A DNA stretch of 64,000 bases from Marsupella aquatica. Lineage: Eukaryota; Plantae; Marchantiophyta. Under the pieces are notes generated by a model that saw nothing but the letters and a program-made list of their open reading frames with translations, made no database searches and was not told where the DNA came from. Each line of letters opens with the position of its first letter. Position 1 is the first letter of the stretch. The translations under genes and the position numbers were made by a program. Shown here piece after piece: positions 1,855 to 52,119 of this stretch. The DNA lies in contig OZ316891.1 of NCBI GenBank assembly GCA_973895155.1, positions 18,687,048 through 18,751,047 on the forward strand, read 5' to 3'.

Positions 1855-1876
1855 ATCACTATATTCATTAAAACTG
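1855..1876 (+). repeat. Left TIR (22 bp)
   Basis: Perfect inverted match to 17953-17974, with imperfect extension for ~12 more bp. Confidence 0.92.
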
Positions 1877-2324
1877 TACTTTTAAAAGTCCATAAGATGA
1901 ACCCTAAAGTTATTTTTTTTCAGGCCAAATTTCTATTAAAGCATTCCCAAAAGCTAATTTTTTTCAGCCCAAATATACACTTTTGAACGCCCAAAATTTT
2001 GTTTTTTTCACCCAAATGTTTAATAATAACTTAAATCATATATTCTAATTAATTTAAAAATTAGAGTAAATTTAATTTAGTCCAAAAATCAGAGGCCAAT
2101 ACCACTCAGACCATCTATAAATTCAAAAATATAGATGGTCATAAATCAAGGGTCAAAATGAGATTGACCCACTATATAATTATTAAATTGTCCAGTCCAG
2201 TGAGAGAGCCTCACACTAAGCATATATCCTAATTATTTACTTTATCCTACATGTTCAAAACATATCCTTTCAAGACATAATATGAATGTACAATTCAGGG
2301 TAGGCACTAGAGCAACCCTATCTC

Positions 2325-3380
2325 CTAATGATCAAGACAAAACTCATTTGAACAAGAAAGTCTGCTTCCTGATTTATCATAGCGGATGTCACGGTTGCAA
2401 GTATCTATCGCATGGTGGTTCTTAAACTTATTGGTGAGATCCCTAGTTCTGAGAACTTTCCAAATAAAATGCCTTCTATTTTGTGTATGAGGACCAGAAT
2501 AGTTGTCTCCAAGTATTACGTTTGCAGTTTCTTTGATCTCATCTGTGGCCAACGTCTCCAGTGGTGGGTAATGCTGCACCTCGTTCTTTCTGTCCCAAGG
2601 AATCTCTTCAGGAGTCACATCCAAGATGGTTCCAAACTCCCTATGGATACAACGACAATCTCCCCACTTCTGTTCCAAAAGAGCATAGATGGCAGCATGA
2701 TCCTCCTTGCTTGTTAATAAATTGAAAACAGACCACTTTGGATTGTTGACAGTGATATAATGTTGAACGCAGTAAGCCTTTCTCAATTTGCAAAGATACG
2801 GCCATAATATCTCGGGCAAAAAAGTGTCATTTGAAGTTGTGTGAGTAAATGGATTTGGAAACAATCCATTCACGTCATAATTCAAAAATGCCTTCAATGG
2901 AGAATCATCAATAAGAACTGTATTAGAAGCATCATATTTTTCTGGAAAACGGTCCCAAATGGTTTGCAAATTCTTCAGAAGTAAATTGGCCTTCCCATCT
3001 GTTATATCTGGCCTTTGGATGCAACTATCAAAGGTATCTTCTTGAGTAAAGACAAACTTGAACTTCTGTCGCTCCTCCTCAGTGAAAATCAACTCCATTA
3101 AGTCCATTGTTTTTGGCCTCCTTGCACAGGTCCAAATTGCGACGTCAAAAACCATGAAAGCTGCATATAGAAATTCGTGGAGGTATGGGCGCTCCACATA
3201 CATGAAATTAAACCCTCCACGTCTCCCCCAGTGCACACCACGTAAACTTGTCTGATTTCGCCATGGTCCTGAGCTTCTGGTCTTAATGCAATCCCAACAA
3301 ATCTTGTTAAGGTCAAGAACCAAGAGCTTTCGCCGGATCGGAGAGTGTAGTATTGGAGTGAATTCTGGAAACATTAACAT
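2325..3380 (-). CDS. FCP1/NIF-like HAD-superfamily phosphatase (transposon cargo)
   Basis: Intact 351-aa ORF; KLLVLDLN motif I, RPYLHEFL, VAIWT, LLKNLQTIW, NTVLIDDSPLK. Confidence 0.8.
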   Translation of the reverse strand: MLMFPEFTPILHSPIRRKLLVLDLNKICWDCIKTRSSGPWRNQTSLRGVHWGRRGGFNFMYVERPYLHEFLYAAFMVFDVAIWTCARRPKTMDLMELIFTEEERQKFKFVFTQEDTFDSCIQRPDITDGKANLLLKNLQTIWDRFPEKYDASNTVLIDDSPLKAFLNYDVNGLFPNPFTHTTSNDTFLPEILWPYLCKLRKAYCVQHYITVNNPKWSVFNLLTSKEDHAAIYALLEQKWGDCRCIHREFGTILDVTPEEIPWDRKNEVQHYPPLETLATDEIKETANVILGDNYSGPHTQNRRHFIWKVLRTRDLTNKFKNHHAIDTCNRDIRYDKSGSRLSCSNEFCLDH

Positions 3381-6367
3381 AAGCCCTTAGTCAATGCGAC
3401 TCAAAGTTTAAATTAGTTCGTGGACCCCCACCCTGTTTTTATTGGATTGAGATTGAAAGTGGATTGAGATTGAAAGTGGATAGTTATTGATACAAATAAA
3501 AAATGTGTTAAAAAGTAGACAGTTATTGATATAGATAAATATGTTTCCGACAATGGGTATCTTTATTGGGACTTGTCATTTATTTTTGCATGATAGAACA
3601 CATTGTTCTGAAATTGTTCAAGGGGTTCGACAGGATTGCAGCTCCTGTGAGGGAAATAGCATTGTTGGGGGCACTGGTGACTTTCGATTGGCTCAAGGGT
3701 GGGCAGACATCACCACTTACTCCTTGATTGACGTCGCCAATGCAAATCTATGTGTTTAACCACATATGTAGTACAGCATAAGAAAGTAGAAAATACAGAC
3801 GTGGCTATTGTTTGCATGGAGGAAGTGGAGACAAATAGTCCTCGTAGTTTGTCTTCGCGACACTGTTGTTTAAGACATTTTTATCGACTCAGACCCCACT
3901 CATTCCCATGTCAGTCTGGTATTCTCATTTTAGGCAACTCCAAGGTCAACTACTACTTGCCTGGTCGGTGTGTTCTTTGCGGACCAGAACTCCCCACATG
4001 AAACCAATTTCAATTAATGTATGAACCAAACGCAGCATAAACGAAATTTCTTTTATTTTAAGAAATAGTTCAGTTTGCCTGGCCTAGGAAACTTTGTGAC
4101 GGTCTAGTATCAGTACTCTGTGTCCCGGGTTGCAGTTCACCTATTGCTTCTGCCCTAGTCACTTCTTTTAAGAAAGCTTATAACAGAGACCAATTTCAAT
4201 TTTGACGAGTGTAAGAAGCGAAAAGAACATTCCCGACTCTGACAGGAGCAGTAGAGGGGGTTGATCTGGTTCCAAAAGTCCAAACTATTCAGAGGAAACT
4301 GAAGCGAATAAGCATCTCCAAAATGAAAATGGTGAGATGGCCACTGATTCCTCTATTGAAAAATCTGATAAGGTCGAGGTTTAGATTGTCTCTGCAACCG
4401 AGCAAGATAAAGCCGAAGAAGCGTGAATAATTTTGATGCCTAGAAACTACGGCCATCTCAAATAAGATTGCCCTCCCTGTTCAGAGCTTGAGCTGGATGC
4501 CCAAGAGCACAGTCAAGCCCTTAAGCAGAACAACTTGAGAACCAACATCCGAAGCACAGGCTACTCGACCAGCGCTAGGAGGTTCGTAAATTCCTAAATC
4601 CGTATAGCTATGAAGCCAAATCTGGAACATCTGATGATACCTCATAAATTCTCAATTAGAGGTCCAAGAAGCTCACGGCAGAAACCTAAAGCCTGAAACA
4701 TCTTGCGCACTGTGGAGGAACCCTCCCAGAATCTTTCAAAATCTCTCATCCATATTCGGACATAGAGTTAGTATTTGCTACTGGCTCCAGAACTCTGAAT
4801 CCTTAACGCTGACAGCGCTACGATCTCGGCTACGATCATATCCGGAAGCAACTGTCTGAGGGATCAAAAATTGAAGAAATGAAACAGAGGGGAAGCAATC
4901 TCTGGGAGCCGAAAGGAAAACATAAAGACAACCAGAAAAAGGAAGAAGCAAGGAAGAAGCAAAATGAGCGCCCGTGAAGGGCATTGGTGTCCGACATTCG
5001 ATCGAGAATCAAAAGAGAGACATCAAAATCAGAAGGATTCAGCAATGAAAGTTGACCTTGTTTGATCGAACTGCTTTTGCCTTTTTCTTCTGATCAGGTC
5101 GCTGCCTTTCCGCTCTTCTCTGCCCCAATCGTGTTTCTACAGCATTTTATATCTTCTTGTTCAATCCTTAATTTTCTCTTTAAATTTTCTGTTGTTCTCT
5201 GGATCCTCAGGGCGTTGTGTTAGTCTCTCTTTACACTTTCACTTCGCCATGGCCTCTTTTGATCTTTGTTTTGATTTCAGGTTCAAATCGCAGTCCTTCT
5301 CTTCCTGATTCGATCGTTTCGTTCTTCAGTTTCTTCTTATCAATTCTGTTTGCGATCATTGCTTTTCCTGCTTTTGGTCCTTATGAAATGAACTCTCTTC
5401 TGGTTTCTTTGTTATCGAATCTTCGATCGGGCAGCTTCTTTCTCACCTTCTCGTTTCTCTCAACATTGCGTGTGCACACATTCACCGCACCATCACCATC
5501 AAAATCAACAACGAGAATTCGTGCAGAGGTTGTGGCGCGGAGGAGCGCTCATTTTACAGTTTGGATTGCGGGCGGGATGGATTGTAGTGGACGTTAATTA
5601 CTTAACTGTTTCTAGTGACAAGTGCTTACTTTCGATTACACATTTAATTTTTTTATTACTTAATGGTTATTATTATTATTTAATGTTGTGCATTCCATTA
5701 TTTAGGGGTTGAAAAAACGGTTATTGTCTATCTCAACTTCAATACTTTGTTATCTAAAGGTAAATAATACGGTTAATTGTAAAAGAAGTTTACATGAATT
5801 TTTACGGCATGGCGTCCCTAGTTTTACCAAAATTCCGTCGCAAACACGAATGTGGGCATAATTTCATTGTGGAGACCAATTCGTTCCTGTTTGTTCCGGT
5901 TGTTGTTGACGTGGCATGCTATGGTGCCAGGAATTTTGGAAGGGACCTCTAGTGGGGTCCGTAACAATTACTACGGAAGAAAACTCTCAAAATTTGAAAT
6001 CAAACAAACTTTGTTATAGCATTTGAAGTAGAGAGGAACGACCCTGGAGTGACCCTCCTAGAAAAACATTAATTACATTCAATTGCCATTTTTTAGATCC
6101 AAAGTATACGTGGGTCAAACCCTTCCTCCATAGCAACGCTTTCCGAGGGAATGCCAACAAAATCCTTTGAGGAAGGAGATTCTACGACGGAACTTTGGTC
6201 TGTAAAAAAGTATATTATTACAAAGATAAAGCTTAGATTGTCATTAAAATACCAAGAACCAAAGAAAGGGCTAATAATTTCCAATGCTAAAATGCCCAAA
6301 TTCATCTATTGTTTGATCACCTAGAACACTCTGTATCTCGGAATTGATACCACTGGGAAGTTGCTCT

Positions 6368-9300
6368 TCAAAGGATGGGGGTGCAAAAACTGGGCTCAGT
6401 CTCAAGTTCAGTTTTTTGTAATCTGATTTTGCCATTATCTTTGGAGCATCGTCTAGTGATTCTATCATTCCAACCTTTGGTCCATTTCTCCATATAAAAT
6501 GAGTTGCAGGACGGGCTGTTTTCATATATCCAGTCCTGCCGATCTCGGATCCAGAATTTTGTGAAAATGAATACTACGGGGCTTCCTGTAGAAGCACTTG
6601 TAAAAACCAATTTAGTCTCTGATGAGCAATATAGAGGAGACAGGGGAGGATTTGAAGCACCTGCCTTCTCTTCTTCATTTGCAGCGGTCTCAGGTACTTG
6701 ACGATCATCCTCCTTTGCAAGCGCAATGTCTGACATTTCTCCCAATTCTACTGCGTCAATATTGCCTAGACCATCTGCGGTTGCCTTCCAATGTGCGTCC
6801 GATGTGGACGATGTAAGATCTGGGTCCGATTGGTGCATCCAATTCTCTACACCGACAAAGGGATTTCTTGGTGGGTCGCCCTCAGGTCGACCCACAACAT
6901 CAGCCAACCCCACACCAAAGTAGGGAATACCTACCACTTGTGTTCCACGTTCATTCAAATTTCGGGTGACCCTGTCGTCTGTGTCGTGACCCAATTCTCC
7001 TTTCTCAATATCATCTTCGCCCTGGTCTACGCCTTCTTTGGCACCAACATGCTCGGAAACCCCATCGCGGGCTCTACCAAATTTGGAACCGCCCATCCAG
7101 TCACTCATTATGGAAGGAACTTTCTTGCAGAGAACCCTTCCATATGCCTGAGTGAAATCATATTCATCCTCAGTGTCTGAATATGCAAAGCATTCTCTGA
7201 AACACAACAATGACACCTTCATAACCTGTCCTCCCGAGAAAAAGTCAAGTATAGTCTCCCCTTCAGCTGAAAAAAATTCAATAATACTCTGCAGCATACA
7301 TTTTGGCTTAGCGTGAATATTCACAAAGCCACCTCTACTTCCCACCATCTCAAACATGGGAGCCTTTCGTAAGAAATCTCCAATGTGAAATGCCGAAGTT
7401 GACTCAGTCTCTGTCTCCTTACTTGTCTTACTCTTATTCTTATCTCGCTTCTCCGTCTTGTCTTCCACTTGGAAATCAGGGTCGATCGCCGAATTGTAAG
7501 AAAATTGGCAATTAAATCCAGGCCTGAACACTTGCTTCCAATCAAATTTCTCCTCAGTGGTGATTCCTGCAAAGATTATCTCCTCCATACCACAACTGAA
7601 AAGTAAGCCCTCTGGAACTGGTGTATCACTCCATCGATAGCTCCCGTAGTCGACGTGGATGTCCATTCCCTTTTCATGTTGCAATTTCCTAAGGGCACTC
7701 AAAATGTTTGCAGCAAGTGGCCCCGGATGCACAGTCATGACAACAACAATTGTTGGATTTCTTGGAAGATCCACAATGTATTGCAGTAATGCAATAATTT
7801 CAGCATCGGTCCAAACATGTTGTCGGAGCCTACTGAAGTCAACAATGGCAAGAGGACACAAAGGCGAAGGCTCTTGTAGCATTTCCGGCACGGTCGTCTT
7901 CATCAAATTCTCACTAAAAAATGTCAAGAAAGGCTCCATGCGAGAACGACCAATCCCACCAAATTCTTTACAATACAACCCATCTAGTCTGACCATCAGA
8001 CTTTGTGGGAAACTCTCCTTGACCACATTCTTCTTCAATGAATTATTGAGGTAAACCTCACCCGCTGCTCTCCTCAATTTTGTCATCTCAAGCTCAGATT
8101 TCAAGGAAGGCAACAATATCACCAGAGACTCCCAAGATGTGCCAATAGGAAACTTCTCACGATACTTTTCCACGAAATAGCCAATAATGATTGTTCTCAA
8201 TTTGGACATTATCTTGATTGTAAGGGCCAAGTCTCCCATTGCGACAAGCTCTGATTTGTTGGTGATATCCTTCTTCAGCAAGACAAGCTCCTCTTCAACG
8301 TCCTTCAAGATCTCAATTATCTGTTTGCTACTAATCTCTCCTTCAAAGCATCGAAAGGTACCGGGAGTGATCAATTTTGGGGGTCTTGGCCCTCCATACC
8401 CACCAGCCCCGTCTTGGAGCTTCCCACTCAACCATTTTGCACACACGTTCCGCCATAATTCAAAGAGCTCATCTTTGGCAAAAAGTAACCAATAAATGCT
8501 CTTTAGGCTTGACTTCCCCATTGTAACCTTTGCCAGGGCAAACCAATCCTGCATATCCAATGGACTTGACATTAGTTTTAGTGTACAATGCATATGTTAG
8601 AAAATTTATACCTATGTTTGAAACAGGCTAAGCCGCCTCGCCCCAAGGGCGTGGCGAACCTCTACATCTAACCGCAATTGACTGAAACGGAACTAGGGAA
8701 TTATTCTTAGAGAGACTAGTCTAGGTTGCCTCGCCCTGAGGGCGAGGCAAATATTTGCTTTAATCTTCTAACCAAGGAAAACAAGAAAAGGCAGCCTCGC
8801 CCTTGGGGCGAGGCAAACCTCTACCATTGACAATCTTTAAACAAAGCGGATCAAGAATAGTTTGCGTTGCTCCAACATGTACCTGATAGTTTTTCCTGTC
8901 TGTATTTTGATTGGTCCCAACCCCTGGACGCGGCGGTTTCCCGCACTCCTCAAACTGCCTTCGTGCATGAACAATAGTCTCTAAAAAACAAGACTTAAAT
9001 TGCATAGTATCATTGACAACATTCGATAAACTTGAATGCTCAACCAAAATTGTCTTCGGAGTGAGGTCAGATAGGATCCTTGCTTTCCTATACTTTAGTT
9101 TGTTGGCAAGATCTGTCAGCTTGGCGTCAGTCTCGGCCCACCCTTGGATCCATTGGGCAGCTCTTGCAGAATGCTGGCCACTGATGGCAAGGAATTGGAT
9201 CTCATGCTTCTTCACACCAATCAAAAACTCTTTCCTATCCTGAGGTGTGTTGTCATAATGAAGCAACTGTTTAGTGCTCTCCCGATACAGAATCAAATTA

Positions 9301-11343
9301 GCAACTTGTGGTTCCTGTCCAAGGTTTTTCATCATAGACTTTGATATCTCCATTGCATGCGAAAGATTGAACATTCGATATACGAAAACGGCTGATGGCG
9401 GATTAATACTTTTTACAGGAATATCAAAAACTTCGCGGATGCCAAAAGTATAATACTGCTCAATATTACGCAAAACCTCTTGGCCTTTGAGCACATCATC
9501 TTCTTTGGGTCCTTCTGTCGGACACATATCATCCTCTGGATGCAAGACAAAGTTTGAAGTTGACCCTGACATTGGTTTTGATTTTGCAACCTTTGCCTTC
9601 TTTGTCTGCTTCTTTTGGGGGCCCTCATCATCTTCATTTTTTTAGCCATCTTCTTACGGCGTGAACTCCCAGATTGTTTCTCTTGTTGAACAACCGGCTC
9701 TTGAAGCTTTCGTTTCTTCTCTGTCTTTGATTGCGCACTTCTTTCCACTATCTTCTTTCTCTCCTTTGCCTTATGCTTGCTTCTTTTTTCTTCATCTCTG
9801 AAATCCACGTCCGGCACGCGGCCTCTTGAAACTCTGGACAAAAAATGAAACTCTTGTCGATTGCTTGCTCGTATGAAAAATGTGCCTTATCAATCATCCT
9901 TTGAACTATCCAAGTAGACGGAGGGTCCACACTGTCCGCATTGTCATGCATGTGCTTCTTTACGTAGAGAAATCCAAACACTAGGTCAACTCCACTTATT
10001 TGAGAACGCATCTTCTCAAACATCTGATCAATTGTTACTCCATCTGGGAAGAATCCCATATCAACTACACTTATCTCCAATCGAGCCATCCACTCAACAT
10101 TCAGTAAAATTGAGTAGAGTTTTATTGGCACTAGAAGTCTCATCCACTGAGATTTCTCATTGGACTCAACAATAATCGTTGCATTGCGGTTGTTGTCCAT
10201 GTTCACAAGGACGACTGGACCTAGAGTAACAATTGTCTTGCGGTCATTCAATTGACTTGTGAGGCCCTTGAAACAAATCAAGAGACTGCCTTCCGCCGAC
10301 ACCCCAACTTCTAGTGCCCATCTAAATCCTGGAGTATCTTGGTCAGGGAAAACAAAGTCCTTGATATCCTCGTCCATAATATTTAACTCCGGCTTCTCAA
10401 GATTTTTTCCTGGTAAGAAACATTGAAAAAAAATGGTCAGCATCATATTTTTAACATTGACATGTGGAAAACTTTCAAGGTGCCTCGCCCTTGGGGCGAG
10501 GCGACAAATAGAAGATTGCAAAATCTTCTTTGCTCCTAGTGCAATTAGCCCTGCCACCTCATCCAAGCAATCAAACATTATTTAGGAATGCAGACGACAT
10601 CGCCTCGCCCCAAGGGCGAGGCAACTTCTAGGAAAGCAAACAACATTTAGGAATGCAGACAACATCGCCTCGCCCCAAGGGCGAGGCAACTTCTGGAAAG
10701 CAGACAACATTTAGGAATGCAGAGGACATCGCCTCGCCCTTGGGGCGAGGCAACTTCTGGAAAGCAGACAACATTTAGGAATGCAGAGGACATCGCCTCG
10801 CCCCAAGGGCGAGGCAACTTCTGGGAAAGCAGACAACATTTAGGAATGTAGAGGACATCGCCTCGCCCCAAGGGCGAGGCAACTTCTGGGAATGCAGACT
10901 ACATTTGAGGAATGCAAACGACATCGCCTCGCCCCAAGAGCGAGGCAAAAAATAGAATATAGCTAAAGATCCTTTATTAATGTAAGATACAAGGTCCAAT
11001 ACGCCTTTGGAGCAACAAGAAATCTAGAATGAAGTAGACGTCGCCTCGACCTTGGGGCGAGGCGACTGCAAAGGAATATAGAAATTTTCCTAATAAGAAG
11101 TTTGAAATCCAAATTAAAGTAAAGTTGCCTCGCCCTTAGGGCAAGGCAAGAAGTTGAAGCAGGTGGTGCCTTACGTGGAAAAGTTAACTGGGCTTTCTTT
11201 GACGCCTCCAACGCATTGTTAACCAATTTTTGGACATCCGGGTCTTCAGGGTCATATTCATACACAGAGTTATAATTGAAGTTCAATGACTCTTGAGAAC
11301 TGGCGGAGGTGGTGGAAGCTTCAGAACTGGAGGAAGTAGACAT
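6368..11343 (-). CDS. Multi-exon cargo gene: ParB/Srx-like domain plus N4C/N6A (beta-class) DNA methyltransferase-like domain; probably disrupted by one or two frame changes
   Basis: Predicted ATG 11343; phase-consistent GT-AG introns 10410-11174 and 8549-8882; FLAISGQHSARAA (ParB/DGQHR-like); HAKPKCMLQSIIEFFSAEGETILDFFSGG...RECFAY (N6_N4_Mtase C-terminal, motif I-like). Frame changes near 9840 (possibly an intron) and the T7 run at 9637-9643. 3' end uncertain, may extend to ~6093. Confidence 0.65.
10581..10948. repeat. Tandem array, six ~64-65-bp units, each with palindrome GCCTCGCCC-NNN-GGGCGAGGC
   Basis: Units start at 10581, 10646, 10710, 10774, 10839, 10904; dispersed palindrome copies at 8635, 8728, 8794, 10482, 11043, 11127. 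Confidence 0.95.
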
Positions 11344-12508
11344 TGTAAGGGGCGAGTGAGATTTAAGATGACACGTGGCAGCAATGGAGAATGCCATAGG
11401 CTGCAAGAGGGCACTAACAGGCAAACAATGATCGAGGGAGCGACCCAAAAGGGAAGGGAGCAAGGCAGAAATAAAAGCCTTAGAGCGAGGCGGAAAACAA
11501 ATCCCAAGAGCGAGGCAAAAACAAAAGCCCTAGAGCGAGGCAAGAGGGAGGCAAGGAGTGAGGAGACGAGAGAGGAGGCAAGAGGGAGGCAAGGAAATGA
11601 GGCCTCAAGCGCAAGGCCTGCCTTCCTATACCCCCTACGAGCGAGGAGTCCGAGGAGGCAAGGATCCGAGAGGGTACGGAGGCATCAATGCGCGCCAATG
11701 ATGGAGACCCACCTCGGTGCATGTGATCGTGAGTCACCGATGGTGTGACCACTCACGACCACTCGCGACTCACCTACCAATTTTAAACTTCCGAGCTGTC
11801 AGCGGTGTGTGCTCGCAACTCACCTATCACTCGTGAGTGATTGGCTGACACCCTATCCGATGTCTACTTGTGTGCTGGGTGCGTGCCTCATCCACCCATG
11901 CCCGATCTGGTGGTGTCCACTCGTGTGCTGGGTAATGTGTGGGCTTTTTGCCTCTCAAACTGAGTATAGACCTCCCACAATCCATTTTTTGGTTCATTGT
12001 CATTTAGACAGTGATTGGTACGATCACTGACTCTCCTCTGTCCGAGTGCCTTGTTTAGGTCCGCATGGTTGAATGCAAGGTTTAGTAAGGGCACTAGTGA
12101 GCACTGTGGTGCCAAGAGTTACAATGTTGGCATCCAAGGTACCCATTTAGCTTGTACAAGGGTGGACAGAGAGATATATTGTGGAGCAGGTTAGTGATTT
12201 TATTTATTTATCTTAGAAGTACTAGCTCAACTACATCTAATTCAATACCTTTAAGCCAAACCTAGATTAAGATTTACACATTAGGTTCTAGATCATATAT
12301 TTTACTCATTCTAGACCTTTATCCACAGTCTAGCATGTGTAGAACTTACTGTACCCCTTTATGTGATTACTAACATAGTTTCTAGAAGTGGGTCGGAATT
12401 ATTTCGTGCCGACCTGACTATGTCATCTTAACTAGCATTTTAAACTGGTATATAAAAGCATAAGCAAGATAGTTTCACAAATAGTTTTGACATAATTTCA
12501 ACTTAATA

Positions 12509-12835
12509 GTTGGAGTAGGGTCGAAATAATTCCGACCCAACTTATCAATGTTTAGTCAATTAAATCATTTTAAGACATATTGTTGGAGGAGGGTCGAAAT
12601 AATTCCGACCCGACTTGTAAATGTTTAGTCAATTCAATCATTTTAAGACATATTGTTGGAAGAGGGTCAAAATAATTCCGACCCAACTTGTAAATGTTTA
12701 GTCAATTCAATCATTTCAAGACATATTGTTGGAGGAGGGTCGAAATAATTCCGACCCGACTTGTAAATGTTTAGTCAATTCAATCATTTCAAGACATAAT
12801 GTTGGAGGAGGGTCGAAATAATTCCGACCCGGCTT
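12509..12835. repeat. Tandem array, 73-bp period, five copies of quasi-palindrome GGGTCGAAATAATTCCGACCC
   Basis: Palindromes start at 12518, 12591, 12664, 12737, 12810; one inverted degenerate copy at 12390. Confidence 0.95.
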
Positions 12836-12962
12836 GAATGTATTTAGGGTTTTGAGTGATTTTACAATATTTTTTGGAGGAGAGTCCAGATTTTGAAACA
12901 TGATTGTAACATGGGGAACTTAACAATTTCTAACTTTATTTGAATACAGATAGTCCGCTATC

Positions 12963-15900
12963 ATGATCAATTTTACACGAGGGGATGAAGTGTCATTGGT
13001 GATCGATGGATTTGAAACGGCAATTGGGATAGTTCAAAAGGTTGACCCCCAGGATACTATACAGAACATTTGTCTAGGGGACAATCGAATTGGGGTATTG
13101 ATCGAAAAGTGTTTTGATGGATCGCGTCAACTTCCATTTCCTTCGCCCAAATTTTCTACATTGGCTGAGGCAATTGACTCCTGCGTGATTTGGGATTGTG
13201 CATTGGCATACTTGAGGTCATCAACTCAGCACCGAAGAATCAATGTCGATGATTTCTCTTTGGCTGGAGATGCTGGAAATGATAAATCCAAAATTGATGC
13301 AAGGGTTGAAGAGGACGTGTTCAAGGAAGGAGATGAAGTTCAGATGTTCATTTTTGATCGATCAGTTGGTTGCAAATGGAGTCGTTTTCAAGACAAATCC
13401 GATGGATATTTGTCATACTGAAACACTCGGGGTTGGTCGCATCAGTATAAGAATATCTGATATTGTTAAGGGAAATCAAAAATTGCCATACTCGCACCCT
13501 GGTGCTGATACAATAGAAGAGGCCTTGCATACCTGGGTTATCTGGGATGTTGCCCATGTTTCTAGAAAGGGCACTCTACGAGATTTTGGCGTGTTTGGTA
13601 GTTCAAATATTTTCAATGATCTTCCATTAAAAGATTTTACACTACGTTCCAACTGGATGGCGAAGGAGGTTGATTTGTATGACGCTTCTCGTTGTCGAAA
13701 GGTTGCAACAGGTGTTATCACGGTCACATTTGAAACAGGTGCCGTTGACGATGAACTTCTTGGTGCAGATCATGTTGGTGTTGCTGTTGTGAATATCAAT
13801 GAACCCGGATTATTTCCAAATATCCGTGTTGGTACCCCTGGCTTGGTGAGGTGGGAAATCAAATCCCTTCTATTGATTTCGTCTCAAAGGTTTCTTGGGG
13901 ATATCCTTGAGGAAGTTTCAGAGAAGTGGATGGAGTCGGGTCAAACTAAGGGCGATCCGGATTCAGATGGTGATGGTAAACCTACAAAAAGACCATACAA
14001 TTTCATTAGGAGGACAAAAGTTGATCTTGAGGAGAGGAAGAAAAGGCATTTGGAGTCGAGGGCACTTTTGAAAATTAACGAGGAGTCCATTGATTCCATC
14101 CAAAGAGAAGGTTGTTGCAAGCTGAAGTGTTGCTTGAACATGCCCAGGGAGGACTTAGAGGCAATGAGGAGGGAATACCATGGAATGTCAAGTGACAACA
14201 AAACAAGTCACATCTTTAGTCTCTTTGGGTGTAGAGAGGAGCAAGTCAAGAGAAAGGGATTTTTTGTTCTAAAGGGACGTGTGGTTTGTAAAGATGCATT
14301 TATTAAAATGCATGGGTTCAGTACAACAAAGTACTATGACTACAAAAATCAATACGAAGCTGGTTGCACAATTGGTTTCCATGGAAATCAGGGACAACGG
14401 AAGACACGATCAAGCACTTTGCACGCTCGCGCTTTGTTGGAGTCCATTTTAATCCAAAATGGGGAACCAATGCCACATCTTCCCTATGGTGGGTCCAACG
14501 GCACTGACACTATTGAATATCGGCTCCCATCTTGTTTTACTAAGAAGGAGATTTTCCAAGAGGTGTTTACCAAGATGGAATTAGATGGGTTTGCTAAGGT
14601 TACTGAAGTTACTATGTACAACATCTGGAAAAACTCATTTGATAATTTTGACTTTCACAAGGGAAGTGCATTTGCCAAGTGCACATTTTGCACTAAGTTC
14701 AAAGATCAATTGATGCGGGAGAAGAGAAAAAAAGAGCGTGCAGAGATTGAAGAGAAAAGAGCGCGACATCTTCGTGAACAAATGTCAAGAAGATATGTTT
14801 ACTATGCTCATAGGGTTCTTGCAAAGAAGGATCCTCAAAACTATCTTTGCATTATTCACGATAAGATGGATCAAGCCAAGACTTGGATCCCCAGGTTGGT
14901 CCCCACTCCAAAATCCCTCTCTGGTAGTGGTCAGCCTTTGCCTATTGCCCCTGGGCCCTAAGTGTTACTAATACAGGGAGGACGTGCGAACATCGCAAGG
15001 GTGTTTTTAATGTAATGCAAACTAATTTTTATAATAGTTTTTAAAGTAGGCAACATCCCTGTATATATATTCAGCACAATATTAGTAATAAGGCTCTTAT
15101 CAAATACATGTCAGATTAATCTTATGCAAGGGTACCCAAAATGCCAAGTACACATGTCACTATATGGTTGGCACACATGTCATCACTTTACTTGCGCACA
15201 TGTTCATATAGTAAATCAGATATTTAATTATTTGTCGTCATAAGGCAAGTTTGGTTTCGTGGGCTTTAGGAACACTGAGAGGATAGTGCAGCCATGCTTG
15301 TCTGTATACTACAGGAAGAACTATAATTCTCTAGTACTAATTTTGTTTAACTATATAAAATATGTACCCTAAACAAAGGCGTAACATACAAGTCCCCTAT
15401 GCAAAATAAAGTCTTATCTATTTCAGTATGATATTTGCAATTTTAAAAATTCAAGGATGTTTTCAATTCCTTGAAAAACTATATTATAATTTACAAAAGG
15501 ATAAAATTTAATAGGAAAAGTTAATATTTTTACATTAACAAGGGGATTTTTTTTGTGAACAAAAATATTAAGAAGGGGTACATGGGGGGTGTCTGTTCTC
15601 AGGGGGGTTCACTTTATATAGTAAGAGTGAGGGCCCAGGGCCTATTGCTCTTACTGGGATGTTAACCCATGGAAGAGATCCTGGAGTGTATGCACATTTC
15701 AGTTTGACTGGACTTTGGCCTAGAGATGCAGACTTTACCGTGACATCTTTGGCCAAATGCCTCCGAGATTTGGAAGATTACACAGGAGACAAAACTGGAG
15801 ACCTTCTTGAGGGATTGAATTGGAATGCAACTAGGCCAATATTTCAGTCCCTTCTAGACTTTGAAGCATTTCTGGCCGGTTACTTGGAACCCAAAAATGT

Positions 15901-17382
15901 TTCAATTGTTCGATTTCAAGGCATTGAAGATGGTCAGGAGACTAAAAAGTCAAGCACAGTGGATGTTGGTTCTAAGGATGATCCTGAGACTACTAGGGGC
16001 TCTTTCAAGCCCTTACCAAGGCACCTAACGTTGCAGATGGACAATTCAGGGAAAGATAACAAAAATCAATATGTGATGACATTTTGCACTGAGCTTGTTA
16101 GCAGGGGGTGTTTGAAACTGTGCAAATGTCATTCCTCATGGTTGGCCACACCCATGAAGACGTGGATGCATTATTTTCTCAAGTATCCAAACAGGTCAGA
16201 TACAAAGAGGTTGCTACCCTCTTGGGGTTGATGGCTGAGGTTTGGGAGTGTGAAAGCATTCATCGTGTACCACGATTGATTCAAGAGGTTGCATCTTACA
16301 AGGAGTATTCGAAAACTTTCCAGGTGAAAGAGATAGAAGGTCACTCAAAACCAGTGGCATTTCTTTTCTCCATGAGGGATAATGTGCCAGTGTATCAATA
16401 TAAAGCACATGTCAAGCAACCTTGGCTTCCGGCAATGGGGAGGTCCATTTGGAGAACTGATCCCATCACAAATGCGCTCATTTTACCGGAAGGCCAACCA
16501 TTTGCAAAACCTATATCTGGGGATGTACAAAAGAAGGCTGGAGAAATCATCCCATTCCTTAATCGCTATATTGATTTCTTGAAGAAAAGTTCTAAGGATG
16601 AGACCTCTGCAGCATATAAAGAGAGATTTCCTCTGGTCAAATATTGGGAGAATCTTGTGCAAGCACTGTCCGAGGAACTTACAATAGAAGGGGAGGGGGA
16701 AAGACATTTGCCATTGACAACTGATTTTTGGCCAAAGACTAACCATGGTACAGGTTACAAGATGATTTTGGGGACATCTCAGCCGTCAAGTGAACCTTCT
16801 CAAAATCCAGAGATGATGGACCTTCAAAATGAGTACATGGAAGAGATGGAAGATCAAGCTGCACCCTTTGTTGGTGCACGACAAGAGCGAGAACCTGCAC
16901 GTTGGATTCCTCTACAAGATATTCAAGAAGGTCACTTTGTATTTTTACGTCCAGAGGATGAATGGGAACAGGAAAATGGCAAAGGGCGTTTCTGGTTGGT
17001 TCGAGCTTTGGGTGGTGTGGATCCAAACCATGAGGTTCCCTCAACAGATTTGCAACATATTGAAGGGTCTTCTTCAACGTCTGTTGAGAGCATTTCTCTT
17101 AGGAATGCTCCTATGTTCCAAGTACAATGGTGGAGGCCTAAACATGGTAAGCATGATGCAAAGGATGATGTTCGATATGAACGTTGCTTTCAAACCACTA
17201 AGACTTGGGAGCTGGATCCTGGGTTTGACAATGTTACTCAAAGTTGGCAGTTTGCAAATTCTGCAATGTATGGGTTTAAGTCAGGTGCTAAAGAACAAAA
17301 TATTATGGATAGAGGTTTGACAATTCCTAAGAATGTTTTGAAAACTCTCAAAATTTACATGGAAGGTATAATTGATGAGTAG
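12963..17382 (+). pseudogene. Sola1-like/DUF7869-type DDD transposase, ~1238 aa when repaired
   Basis: IIHDKMDQAK, LQMDNSGKDNKN, FLMVGHTHEDVDALFS; Cys motifs CCKLKCC and KCTFC..H. Removing a GATC duplication (13356-13363) and the MITE plus one TSD copy (700 bp), and adding one G at 16104-16108, gives one 3717-bp frame. Confidence 0.85.
14949..15640. mobile_element. 692-bp non-autonomous TIR element (MITE), 8-bp TSD, inserted in the transposase
   Basis: CCTATTGC at 14941-14948 and 15641-15648; imperfect ~22-bp TIR starting CCCTGGGCCCT; AT-rich non-coding interior; removal restores PLPIALTGMLTHG. Confidence 0.93.
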
Positions 17383-17952
17383 ATTGATAGAACTCGTAGG
17401 TTACAAGTCTCCACTCAAATGACTTGTGATTAAGAGGGTCGAGTTGATTTCCATGCGTTGGTCTAAAGTGAGAGAACAAGACAATCAAATTAATACTCTA
17501 TGATCTCTCAAAGCTATTGAATGGACTTTCTTATAATTATTATTTTATTTGTCTTAGTATATTTTAATTCTAGAAAATGATGCCATTTCATTCCTTCTAG
17601 TAGGTTGGATATCATCCTAGTTAACTTTGTCTAGACACTATAGTCATTCCATTGTATTGGTGCTTAGTTAGATATCTTACTCAAGCTAAATGTTTTGAAT
17701 ATAGATGCTATCCAAGCTTATATGTTATTACTAGATTCTATCTATTTTCCAACCAAATGAACACTTTTATCACCCAAATGTTTTTTAATATCATCCAATT
17801 TAATATTTTACTTTCCCAAAATTTCATTTTTTTGTCCCCAAATTTACATTTAATGATGCTTGAATTTTCATTTTTCATCTTCCAAATTTACAATTTTCAT
17901 GCCTAAAACTATGTTTTTAAATCGCCAAATTTCCCTATATCCTTTATAATTT

Positions 17953-17974
17953 CAGTTTTAATGAATATAGTGAT
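17953..17974 (-). repeat. Right TIR (22 bp)
   Basis: CAGTTTTAATGAATATAGTGAT is the reverse complement of the left TIR. Confidence 0.92.
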
Positions 17975-50774: not shown

Positions 50775-51965
50775 TTACGCAGAGCTTTGGGCAGGTGACT
50801 TGAGGAGGGCTTTCAGCATCGCCATAGCTCCCACCAAGTTCACTGCTCCGACCAGAAGAAGAGGAGTAGGAACGGCACCCGTCAGAACGAGCCACGAAAA
50901 GCTCAAGAACAGGAAGGTTCGCCCCACTACTGTCGAGAGGTAGAAAGCCTCTGCTCCATTCATGCCTCTCATGTCGCCAACAGCTGTGCCAATATAATAC
51001 ACGCCGAAGACTACTGCCAAAATTGCTCCAATTCGAACCCATCCCAGTTTCACACCTTCCAGGTCGAATAGAACCCCAAATAAGACCCTAGGGAACCCTA
51101 GCAAGGCAATGCCTGCAACCGAGATGTAGATCCCCGTGATCAGCGCAACTGTGGCAGGTCTTTTATTTCTATGACCCTCAGTTTGAGGAAACTGGGCATC
51201 AGGAGACATTCCTCCACTACTCAGAATTACACGCTGCTTTTCTACTGCTTCCTTAACTGCTGGGAAGATCTTAATGCTGCCATCAGTTGCGAGAGCAGCC
51301 ATTTTGGGAACACGGGTGTGGTCGTCCTCTGGACAAGAGAGTAGACTGTCACAGATTCGAATTTCTTTGAACTCCATGGATGTGGCGAAAATCCTTGACG
51401 TGGCATCTCCTGCTCTCCCTGCTTGAACGTGCCCTTGAAGGCGGCCCAGTATGACCACATCCCCATCAGCTACCACTTGAGCTCCGGGCTCGACATCTCC
51501 AAGGATTATGATGGTGCCTGCATTCTCTAGAACCTCTCCGCTGTGGATTGTTCTCTTCAAGTACAAGCAGTTTGATTTGCTTCCCCCGTCCACCCCTCCG
51601 ACTGCTTCTTCAGCTGTTTCTCCTGCTCCTGATCTGATCCGAGATCTCCTCGTACTTGTGCTGCAGCTGACGTTCTCCCTCAAACCGGGGGGCTGTAGTG
51701 TCGGAAGAGGTCTGGATGCGAATGCGCATTGGGCTCTTTCCTTGCCATGTGAATGTAGAAAGCCAATTGGGCGTGAGAAACGGGCTCGCTGGGAGAATTC
51801 CTGGCGGGTGGAGCAAGTCGGTGGTGAACTGAGCAGAAAACTTGATGATCGTAGTTCGGAAGGAGTAACAGCTGCGAGTGGAGATTGTCTGGAGGTTTTG
51901 GAACGCCTTGATGTTTTCGATAAACCTCCACTGAGGCAACAATCATAGACGTTTGTGACAGACAT
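50775..51965 (-). CDS. MinC C-terminal-domain protein with putative plastid transit peptide and C-terminal multi-TM domain, intronless
   Basis: LYLKRTIHSGEVLENAGTIIILGDVEPGAQVVADGDVVILGRLQGHVQAG..GDATSRIFA matches the MinC_C beta-helix pattern; Ser/Arg-rich N-terminus; ~4 hydrophobic helices. First in-frame ATG at 51965. Confidence 0.82.
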   Translation of the reverse strand: MSVTNVYDCCLSGGLSKTSRRSKTSRQSPLAAVTPSELRSSSFLLSSPPTCSTRQEFSQRARFSRPIGFLHSHGKERAQCAFASRPLPTLQPPGLRENVSCSTSTRRSRIRSGAGETAEEAVGGVDGGSKSNCLYLKRTIHSGEVLENAGTIIILGDVEPGAQVVADGDVVILGRLQGHVQAGRAGDATSRIFATSMEFKEIRICDSLLSCPEDDHTRVPKMAALATDGSIKIFPAVKEAVEKQRVILSSGGMSPDAQFPQTEGHRNKRPATVALITGIYISVAGIALLGFPRVLFGVLFDLEGVKLGWVRIGAILAVVFGVYYIGTAVGDMRGMNGAEAFYLSTVVGRTFLFLSFSWLVLTGAVPTPLLLVGAVNLVGAMAMLKALLKSPAQSSA

Positions 51966-52119
51966 TGCATCAGAAGGGAACACTCGTGCAACTCTAAAGA
52001 GACTAGACTCCAAACGATCACGCTTCCTTGCACATCATGGTCCTGAATGAACCTTCCATTGTATATTGCACTACCAAAGGACAGAATTCTCCTAATACCT
52101 CTGGAAGTTCTCTCTTTGG

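Follow-up and report, generated by a model that had tools for sequence, protein, structure and literature searches.

Clustered palindromes in the predicted introns of a CACTA-ended liverwort transposon as candidate docking sites for its transposase

Why should a plant DNA transposon carry arrays of 21-bp palindromes, and which protein would read them? The question is raised by a stretch of 64,000 nucleotides from the liverwort Marsupella aquatica (contig OZ316891.1, positions 18,687,048 to 18,751,047), referred to here as the window, which contains a whole DNA transposon of 16,116 bp at 1857..17972. A preliminary description of the window had reported two families of palindromes, A and B, as unrelated apart from a common TCG-N9-CGA spacing, placed them on either side of a divergent promoter, and proposed that they are sites for an element-encoded dimer, either parS-like sites for a ParB-like protein or targets of a methyltransferase-like domain. 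We find that A and B are, by their sequence, variants of one element-specific motif, and that some distant relatives of the transposase carry comparable clusters with motifs of their own.

The copy numbers in the preliminary description were borne out. A search with GCCTCGCCC-NNN-GGGCGAGGC at up to three mismatches returned 12 family A copies between 8635 and 11147, against a mean of 0.01 in shuffled sequence, where 0 of 100 shuffles reached 12. The 9-bp arms are perfect in 8 of the 12 and have one mismatch in the other 4, seven copies equal the 21-mer originally quoted in either orientation, TCG..CGA is intact in ten, and the loop varies (CAA, TTG, TGA or TTA). Six copies form the reported tandem array of about 64 bp, with spacings of 65, 64, 64, 65 and 66. 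The copy at 10731-10751 has an inverted loop (TTG among CAA) within direct flanks, which suggests a hairpin-mediated micro-inversion. Family B, a quasi-palindrome with 9 of 10 pairs, has the five reported copies at an exact 73-bp period (12518-12830), four of them exact and one with CG changed to CA, and a sixth copy that had been missed, inverted and with two mismatches, at 12390. TCG-N9-CGA is enriched in the window (20 observed, 5.4 expected), with 15 of the 20 inside the element. By itself, the spacing that A and B have in common is weak evidence (chance 0.04-0.06); it becomes significant with the extra single copies. Contig depth was no greater over the arrays than over the genes; depth gives no copy number and was not used.

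The arrays do flank the presumed divergent promoter and 5' leaders (11344..12189), but their position can be given more exactly: all 18 array copies (12 A and 6 B) lie within three predicted introns, whose splice sites we infer, and which make up 1853 of the 4397 bases of the stretch concerned. Family A occupies introns 1 and 2 of a cargo gene on the minus strand. Predicted intron 1 (10410..11174; GT..AG, in frame) holds nine copies, at 10482, 10602, 10667, 10731, 10795, 10860, 10926, 11043 and 11127, among them the six of the 64-66-bp tandem array, and 26 of its 30 CpG dinucleotides are in or touch palindromes. Predicted intron 2 (8549..8882; GT..AG, in frame) holds the copies at 8635, 8728 and 8794; its junction matches an annotated Calypogeia protein (P0015) and also P0047, which gives protein-level support for the splice sites of one of the three introns. 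Family B occupies the predicted 5' intron (12190..12949, plus strand; GT..AG only) of the transposase gene, with copies at 12390 (inverted), 12518, 12591, 12664, 12737 and 12810. Three family A half-sites, GCGAGGC, stand between the arrays in the presumed promoter region, at 11485, 11510 and 11535 (25-bp period).

The description of A and B as unrelated did not hold. We regard them as variants of one motif because hybrids exist, at 6873 and in sister contigs, because B-type arms recur when the arrays are masked, and because the same positions, G1, T4 and C5, do not change on both sides at once. The two families share the half-site core G-S-S-T-C-G. A common pattern, G-S-S-T-Y-R-N9-Y-R-A-S-S-C, which was designed after viewing the data, has 18 matches in the window, all 18 inside the element and none in the other 48 kb. 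Two of these matches lie outside the arrays. One, 293 bp inside the left end at 2150..2170, is a single family-B-like palindrome in which neither CpG is kept (TCA..TGA); the other, at 6873..6893 in coding sequence, is a hybrid with the B outer arms GGGTCG..CGACCC and the A-like centre CCCTCAGG. A weak near-hybrid, with a B-like left arm and an A-like right half, lies in the transposase coding sequence at 13938..13958. With the arrays masked, B-type outer arms were found twice with a spacer of 9, and none of the other spacer lengths from 3 to 15 gave any (0 of 400 shuffles), and in 17 aligned copies G1, T4 and C5 are never changed on both sides, while positions 2, 3, 8 and 9 are.

Sister contigs from four runs, on organisms coded A, B and C, span nearly the whole element, with many variants. 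Contigs of X5 and X6 exit the 65-bp array after copy 10602 and reach the next palindrome via a different spacer, an 84-bp skip removes copy 8794 in some contigs, and in loose contig ends at 10929 (X3, X5 and X6) GGG precedes the TCG of copy 10926, which is a B-type arm. Palindromes are thus gained and lost by tandem repeat formation from one copy of the element to another, as in VANC and TnpA targets. In four X5 contigs only 2 of 38 listed substitutions fall in the arms, which cover 24.5% of the bases (9.3 expected, P 0.002), suggesting that the arms are conserved while spacers and copy number change.

To look further afield, we scanned for relatives of the transposase: 236 of 400 candidates were confirmed, and the best 80 loci (57 after duplicate removal) were analysed, 41 of them, non-redundant and with 400 bp or more of sequence upstream of the match, for upstream palindromes. 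A palindrome of the locus's own, in 3-12 copies, was present upstream of the transposase in 11 of the 41; such a cluster turned up in none of 82 shuffles and in none of 18 host blocks of the window. The relatives do not keep TCG-N9-CGA; they use ACG-N10-CGT, ACG-N8-CGT or CpG-less motifs. The differing spacing in related elements, which the preliminary description had named as evidence against its proposal, therefore exists at superfamily level, but not in close sisters. L017, L023 and L026 share ACG-N10-CGT with differing centres, L018 has both N8 and N10, L002, L003, L006 and L007 share a GCTCAAAC-type motif, and still other motifs occur in L004 and L014. Motif type goes with transposase clade in a quick tree of 45 rows that omits 19 loci. 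A constant helical phasing was rejected, as the periods range from 4.4 to 14.5 turns (6.95, 6.15, 6.98, 5.05, 4.48, 13.6, 14.5, 9.1, 9.3 and 4.4). Judged from these sequences, what is conserved is the clustering of palindromes of 20-26 bp upstream of the transposase, and TCG-N9-CGA is lineage-specific, because the relatives use other sequences and spacings.

Some relatives have further features of layout. In L023 the segments 1-1300 and 4720-5420 are arranged like the window: palindromes are followed by leader-like stretches, A-rich and GA-rich, that point left, and then by a 53-bp palindrome array before the transposase. In L026 palindromes at 47-691 and 2817-2977 flank the transposase open reading frame (ORF) on both sides. 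A decayed AT-rich clade (L035, L048, L050, L059, L061, L063, L073 and others) has in common a palindrome centred on GGTGGCCACC, whose copies are scattered both upstream and downstream. A profile of the window's TNP1/DUF8039-like domain was matched by 21 of the 80 loci. Searches for terminal inverted repeats (TIRs) in the 80 loci gave no convincing complete element; a 17-bp inverted repeat in L014 was dropped as a TIR, as it sits in what reads as an insertion of a long interspersed nuclear element.

What, then, could the clusters be for? TnpA and the AtMu1 transposase bind clustered, family-specific terminal motifs and cause hypomethylation; the Spm1 motif, YCCTCGCAA, shares six bases, CCTCGC, with the family A arm, a match that may be due to chance (bioRxiv 10.64898/2026.08.24.746577). 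Tandem repetition is also how VANC motifs build up, both upstream of the transposase and in introns (PMC5735166). The reading that we favour, to which we give about an even chance of being right, is that the palindromes are clade-specific clustered docking sites for the transposase or a TnpA-like isoform. We infer that this protein would dock at the A/B motif clusters, in the predicted introns that flank the divergent promoter, and that docking would let the promoter and its CpGs stay active in the face of host silencing. Tandem duplication would amplify the sites, specificity would come from site density and not from a fixed helical phase, and the ParB-like/methyltransferase-fold/FCP1-like cargo would be an accessory partner and not the primary reader. 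The transposase is ranked first as reader because it accompanies the clusters in every locus, which is partly due to how the loci were found.

The earlier proposal of sites for an element-encoded dimer is thereby kept in a putative form, on the confinement of the motif to the element, the apparent conservation of its arms in sisters and the clusters in relatives, but TCG-N9-CGA and the seven-turn period are not the conserved feature. Like VANC and TnpA targets, the motif is family-specific, clustered in non-coding parts and absent elsewhere, where elsewhere means the 48 kb of flanking window. The likeness to VANDAL elements and VANC, known from Mutator-like elements of Arabidopsis, extends to the tandem amplification of short motifs in introns and upstream of the transposase and to their rapid gain and loss. 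However, VANC motifs are 9-bp, non-palindromic and in one orientation, whereas the present element has palindromes, a different transposase class and no detected VANC-like gene. The arrays are probably best read as an internal, palindromic variant of transposon self-binding clusters, likened to TnpA and VANC targets, with an unusual bacterial-style cargo.

Several observations weigh against the transposase as reader. Family A is confined, in all 12 copies, to introns of the cargo gene itself, as would suit autoregulation by the cargo protein. The TnpA sites of known Spm elements are terminal, whereas the ends of this element hold one decayed copy, that at 2150; its first 470 and last 590 bp are free of repeated motifs, unlike the subterminal regions of CACTA/En-Spm elements, where motifs cluster. 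Fewer than three palindrome copies were found in 30 of the 41 relatives. The arm conservation is only suggestive, because the sister-contig alignments anchor on palindromes and part of the differences is unlisted: 38 of about 46 in the X5 contigs are listed, and the signal would be gone if the other 8 were all in arms. The tree is no proof of co-evolution, since it is quick, omits loci and groups kin that share labels. Nor is the absence of the cargo gene from relatives more than weak evidence, because the metagenome loci are in many cases short or decayed and none could be delimited as a complete element. Weak cargo-like matches do occur, FCP1-like in L050 and L052 and to the helical N-terminal part in L053 and L055 (E 1e-5) and L068 (E 7e-4), and the L023 palindromes are at the far left edge, so that a divergent gene could lie beyond the contig.

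The cargo gene itself has three predicted exons on the minus strand. Exon 1 (11175..11343) is predicted to start with an ATG at 11343. Exon 2 (8883..10409) encodes an N-terminal domain without known match, a basic linker and a ParB/Srx-like domain (AISGQHS); in the window copy it has two one-base frameshifts, near 9636 and 9776, and sister contigs differ by one-base insertions at both. Exon 3 (6368..8548) encodes a helical domain and a beta-class amino-methyltransferase fold that keeps the S-adenosylmethionine (SAM)-binding motif DFFSGG and has DFSR at the catalytic motif. Its structural model is confident (predicted local distance difference test score, pLDDT, 89) and is that of a beta-class amino-methyltransferase (CcrM at E 6e-8; Z 17.9, root-mean-square deviation 3.5 over 217 aligned residues); by sequence, M.RsrI matches at E 2e-5, and the motif order (IV before I) is that of the beta class. 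A separate NIF/FCP1-like phosphatase-fold ORF (2325..3386, minus strand; PF03031, E 9e-17) has DLN at the catalytic motif, where FCP1-type enzymes usually have DxDxT, and is the only element protein named by NCBIfam, as HAD/FCP1-like. In a Riccia relative, P0075, the FCP1-like part is fused to the methyltransferase-fold protein. All three enzyme-like cargo domains (6368-11343 and 2325-3386) appear to be without their usual catalytic motif (GQHS, DFSR, DLN). The cargo has 227 representatives at E <= 0.001, and the named homologs of the element proteins are from the liverworts Calypogeia fissa and Riccia sorocarpa, which points to a liverwort host. Scans of DNA with the cargo gene returned 136 pattern matches in metagenome contigs (query A1) and 45 viral and 57 genome matches (query A2), none of which was confirmed, and these scans consequently yielded no true sister element with cargo and introns readable as DNA. 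Searches of PDB sequences (queries A1 and A5) gave nothing useful.

Could the cargo protein be the reader instead? A dimer of it would bind or load at the palindromes in the manner of parS and shield the promoter, or spread over it, without methylating. We consider this unlikely, although it ranks second among the readings: family A is confined to the cargo gene's introns, the domain fusion is conserved in Calypogeia and Riccia proteins, beta-class methyltransferases act as dimers (PMC10406627), and, as in the ParB-parS, Noc-NBS and KorB systems, repeated palindromes stand near a gene with a weak ParB/Srx-like signal. The best Foldseek rows of the low-confidence ParB-domain model include Noc, ParB, KorB, sulfiredoxin and SbnI, with a best E of 0.55 and no match at E 0.001; the Atlas features of the region match fungal DUF3723 clusters at 0.95, and a DndB match is weak (E 0.052). 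The model is poor, however (mean pLDDT 44; a VIA structure search with it gave a best Z of 4.7, to an unrelated fold), and exon 2 has no ParBc Pfam match. ParB CTPases carry a GxxR arginine motif for CTP, whereas SGQHS occupies this position in 10 of 10 aligned sequences. The host here is a eukaryotic transposon, no helix-turn-helix has been demonstrated in the cargo protein, and no ParA-like gene is among the element ORFs. ParB matches were found in 0 of the 80 loci, and L014, L035, L061 and L062 have clusters and about 10 kb upstream yet no ParB or methyltransferase-core match. The parS reading is weakened by these clusters without ParB and by the weak assignment of the domain.

A wider version of the same idea, in which a bacterial-style partition-and-modification module (ParB/Srx-like clamp, methyltransferase fold and FCP1-like part) would load at parS-like intronic palindromes and spread over or chemically mark the promoter CpGs, an anti-silencing system built from plasmid or phage parts and unrelated to VANC or TnpA, we hold to be rather improbable. 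That the methyltransferase-fold domain is active in a non-canonical way, writing N4-methylcytosine (4mC) or N6-methyladenine at the CpG sites and so blocking silencing by 5-methylcytosine, seems very unlikely indeed. It would fit the full beta-class fold, the SAM-binding motif, which hardly varies (36 of 64 aligned rows read DFFSGG), and the use of bacterial-type 4mC enzymes at CG sites in liverworts (bioRxiv 10.1101/2021.02.12.428880). On the other hand, none of the 48 aligned relatives carries DPPY, SPPY or NPPY at the presumed motif IV, a position placed by strand order in the model and not by residue-level structural alignment, and one that is variable (DFSR in 13, as in the window, DFGR in 8, DFTR in 4). 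Published accounts describe SPPY/DPPY motifs, dimers and 4mC at CG in Marchantia, and both MpDN4MT1 of Marchantia and rotifer N4CMT, which have the same beta-class fold, retain SPPY (PMC10406627; bioRxiv 10.1101/2021.02.12.428880). The element's domain differs from them also in being fused to ParB/Srx-like and FCP1-like parts and carried by a cut-and-paste element. Inactive methylases of DIRS1 are a precedent for a transposon-borne inactive methyltransferase, and algal ParB-HTH methylase fusions are described in the same source, whose accessible parts do not name the present family (PMC4738411). This absence of DPPY/SPPY, together with the methyltransferase-core match in 0 of the 80 loci, including those with clusters, weakens the notion of methyltransferase targets.

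It is also rather doubtful, to about the same degree as the partition-and-modification module, that the palindromes are structural, as cruciforms or as hairpins in the pre-mRNA, or that they arose neutrally from template switching and were multiplied by slippage in tolerant introns. Family A forms a strong DNA hairpin (-12 kcal/mol, z -5.8), the inverted loop of copy 10731 within a direct tandem unit is a sign of hairpin-mediated micro-inversion, changes on both sides separate families A and B, L018 mixes two spacer lengths, and selection on coding sequence alone would also yield the intron placement. Yet B folds weakly (z -2.1), Rfam returned only four matches of miRNA-hairpin type, all far below the gathering score, and the same placement upstream of the transposase recurs in independent clades. 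Template switching, moreover, preserves symmetry and not sequence, whereas the 12 family A copies show no both-side change despite unrelated flanks. Finally, the arrays might be remnants of the subterminal repeats of two elements joined head to head, or an independent minisatellite or miniature inverted-repeat family, which we think highly improbable. CACTA subterminal repeats do form palindromes and vary by subfamily (PMC2613891), A and B differ across the promoter, and in L026 copies stand both before and after the transposase ORF. Against this, no TIR remnant lies between the arrays (the sole other TIR-like match at five mismatches is at 10093), no motif copy lies outside the element in 48 kb of window, the hybrids link A and B, and in L023 a similar region is flanked on each side by one and the same motif.

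Most documented cases of sequence-specific anti-silencing by transposons come from maize and Arabidopsis. If docking by the transposase is correct, the clusters upstream of a whole group of DUF7869 transposases would add a further transposase class, and probably the bryophytes, to those using this strategy, with a target motif that can be read straight from the sequence. The cargo fusion occurs in a lineage known for adopted bacterial 4mC enzymes, and two candidate proteins with three site variants (A, B and hybrid) would allow a simple binding test. A literature search, covering titles and listings for most matches, found no description of a ParB/Srx-like, methyltransferase-fold and FCP1-like fusion or of such an element type, and one for DUF7869 found no paper.

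The class of the element is mixed. It is bounded by exact 20-bp TIRs starting with CACTA, at 1857..1876 (plus) and 17953..17972 (minus), so that the ends read CACTA...TAGTG, and flanked by a 2-bp direct repeat, AT (1855-1856 and 17973-17974). With TIRs shorter than 50 bp it agrees with the definition of CACTA elements (PMC10741241). In the one insertion examined the wider flanks, AAT and ATA, do not form the 3-bp target duplication of plant CACTA/En-Spm elements, and CAAT and ATAT do not form the 4-bp duplication of Sola, which is known from moss (PMC10741241). The transposase gene (12963..17382, plus strand) has TNP1/DUF8039-like N-terminal repeats and a DUF7869 core; the protein is about 1300 residues in intact relatives, and the window copy is broken by frameshifts and an insertion. 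PF03017, the TNP1/En-Spm-like domain, matches relative P0179 at E 2e-8 and the window transposase at E 0.057, and 6 of 11 homologs have a precomputed PF26133 match, in keeping with a TNP1/TnpA-type domain. At the level of sequence profiles the only Pfam core match, in the window ORFs and two full-length relatives, is DUF7869, and there is no match to Transposase_21/tnp2 (TnpD). DUF7869-type cores may resemble Sola transposases. The element thus combines CACTA ends, a 2-bp duplication and a DUF7869 core.

Compared with the TnpA repeats of maize En/Spm, Arabidopsis Spm1 and soybean Tgm, it shares CACTA termini, short TIRs, the TNP1-type domain and a family-specific, CG-containing motif in inverted pairs and clusters. 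It differs in its internal, intronic clusters, in the target duplication and core, in having the TNP1-like domains within the transposase gene, and in its bacterial-type cargo. Two features of CACTA elements, the 3-bp duplication and the subterminal clusters, are therefore lacking, as are the tested ParB and active-methyltransferase motifs.

The window copy is a defective member of a multi-copy family, since variant sister contigs lack two insertions that it carries and differ at its frameshifts. One insertion, of about 2.55 kb (3411..5965; contig joint 3410-5963, ends uncertain by a few bases), has short imperfect inverted ends, AATTA flanks and a CT-rich leader-like stretch inside. The other, a non-autonomous insertion of 692 bp (14949..15640; contig joint 14939-15640), has inverted ends of 11 bp, is flanked by a target duplication of 8 bp and interrupts the transposase gene. 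Near the left end, at 2119-2150, an inverted repeat with 10-bp arms GACCATCTAT and a 12-base spacer lies directly 5' of the decayed family B copy. The transposon is inserted in a Copia retrotransposon, 14 bp 5' of the gag start, and empty-site contigs from two runs join 1854 to 17989/17999 across it; no standard primer-binding site for the host Copia was found within the window (host site 1-1851 and from 17973). The other content of the window, Copia genes, a plastid MinC and short introns, is that of plant DNA, the MinC-domain gene (PF03775, E 1e-23), of plastid-division type, lying in host sequence at 50775-52013.

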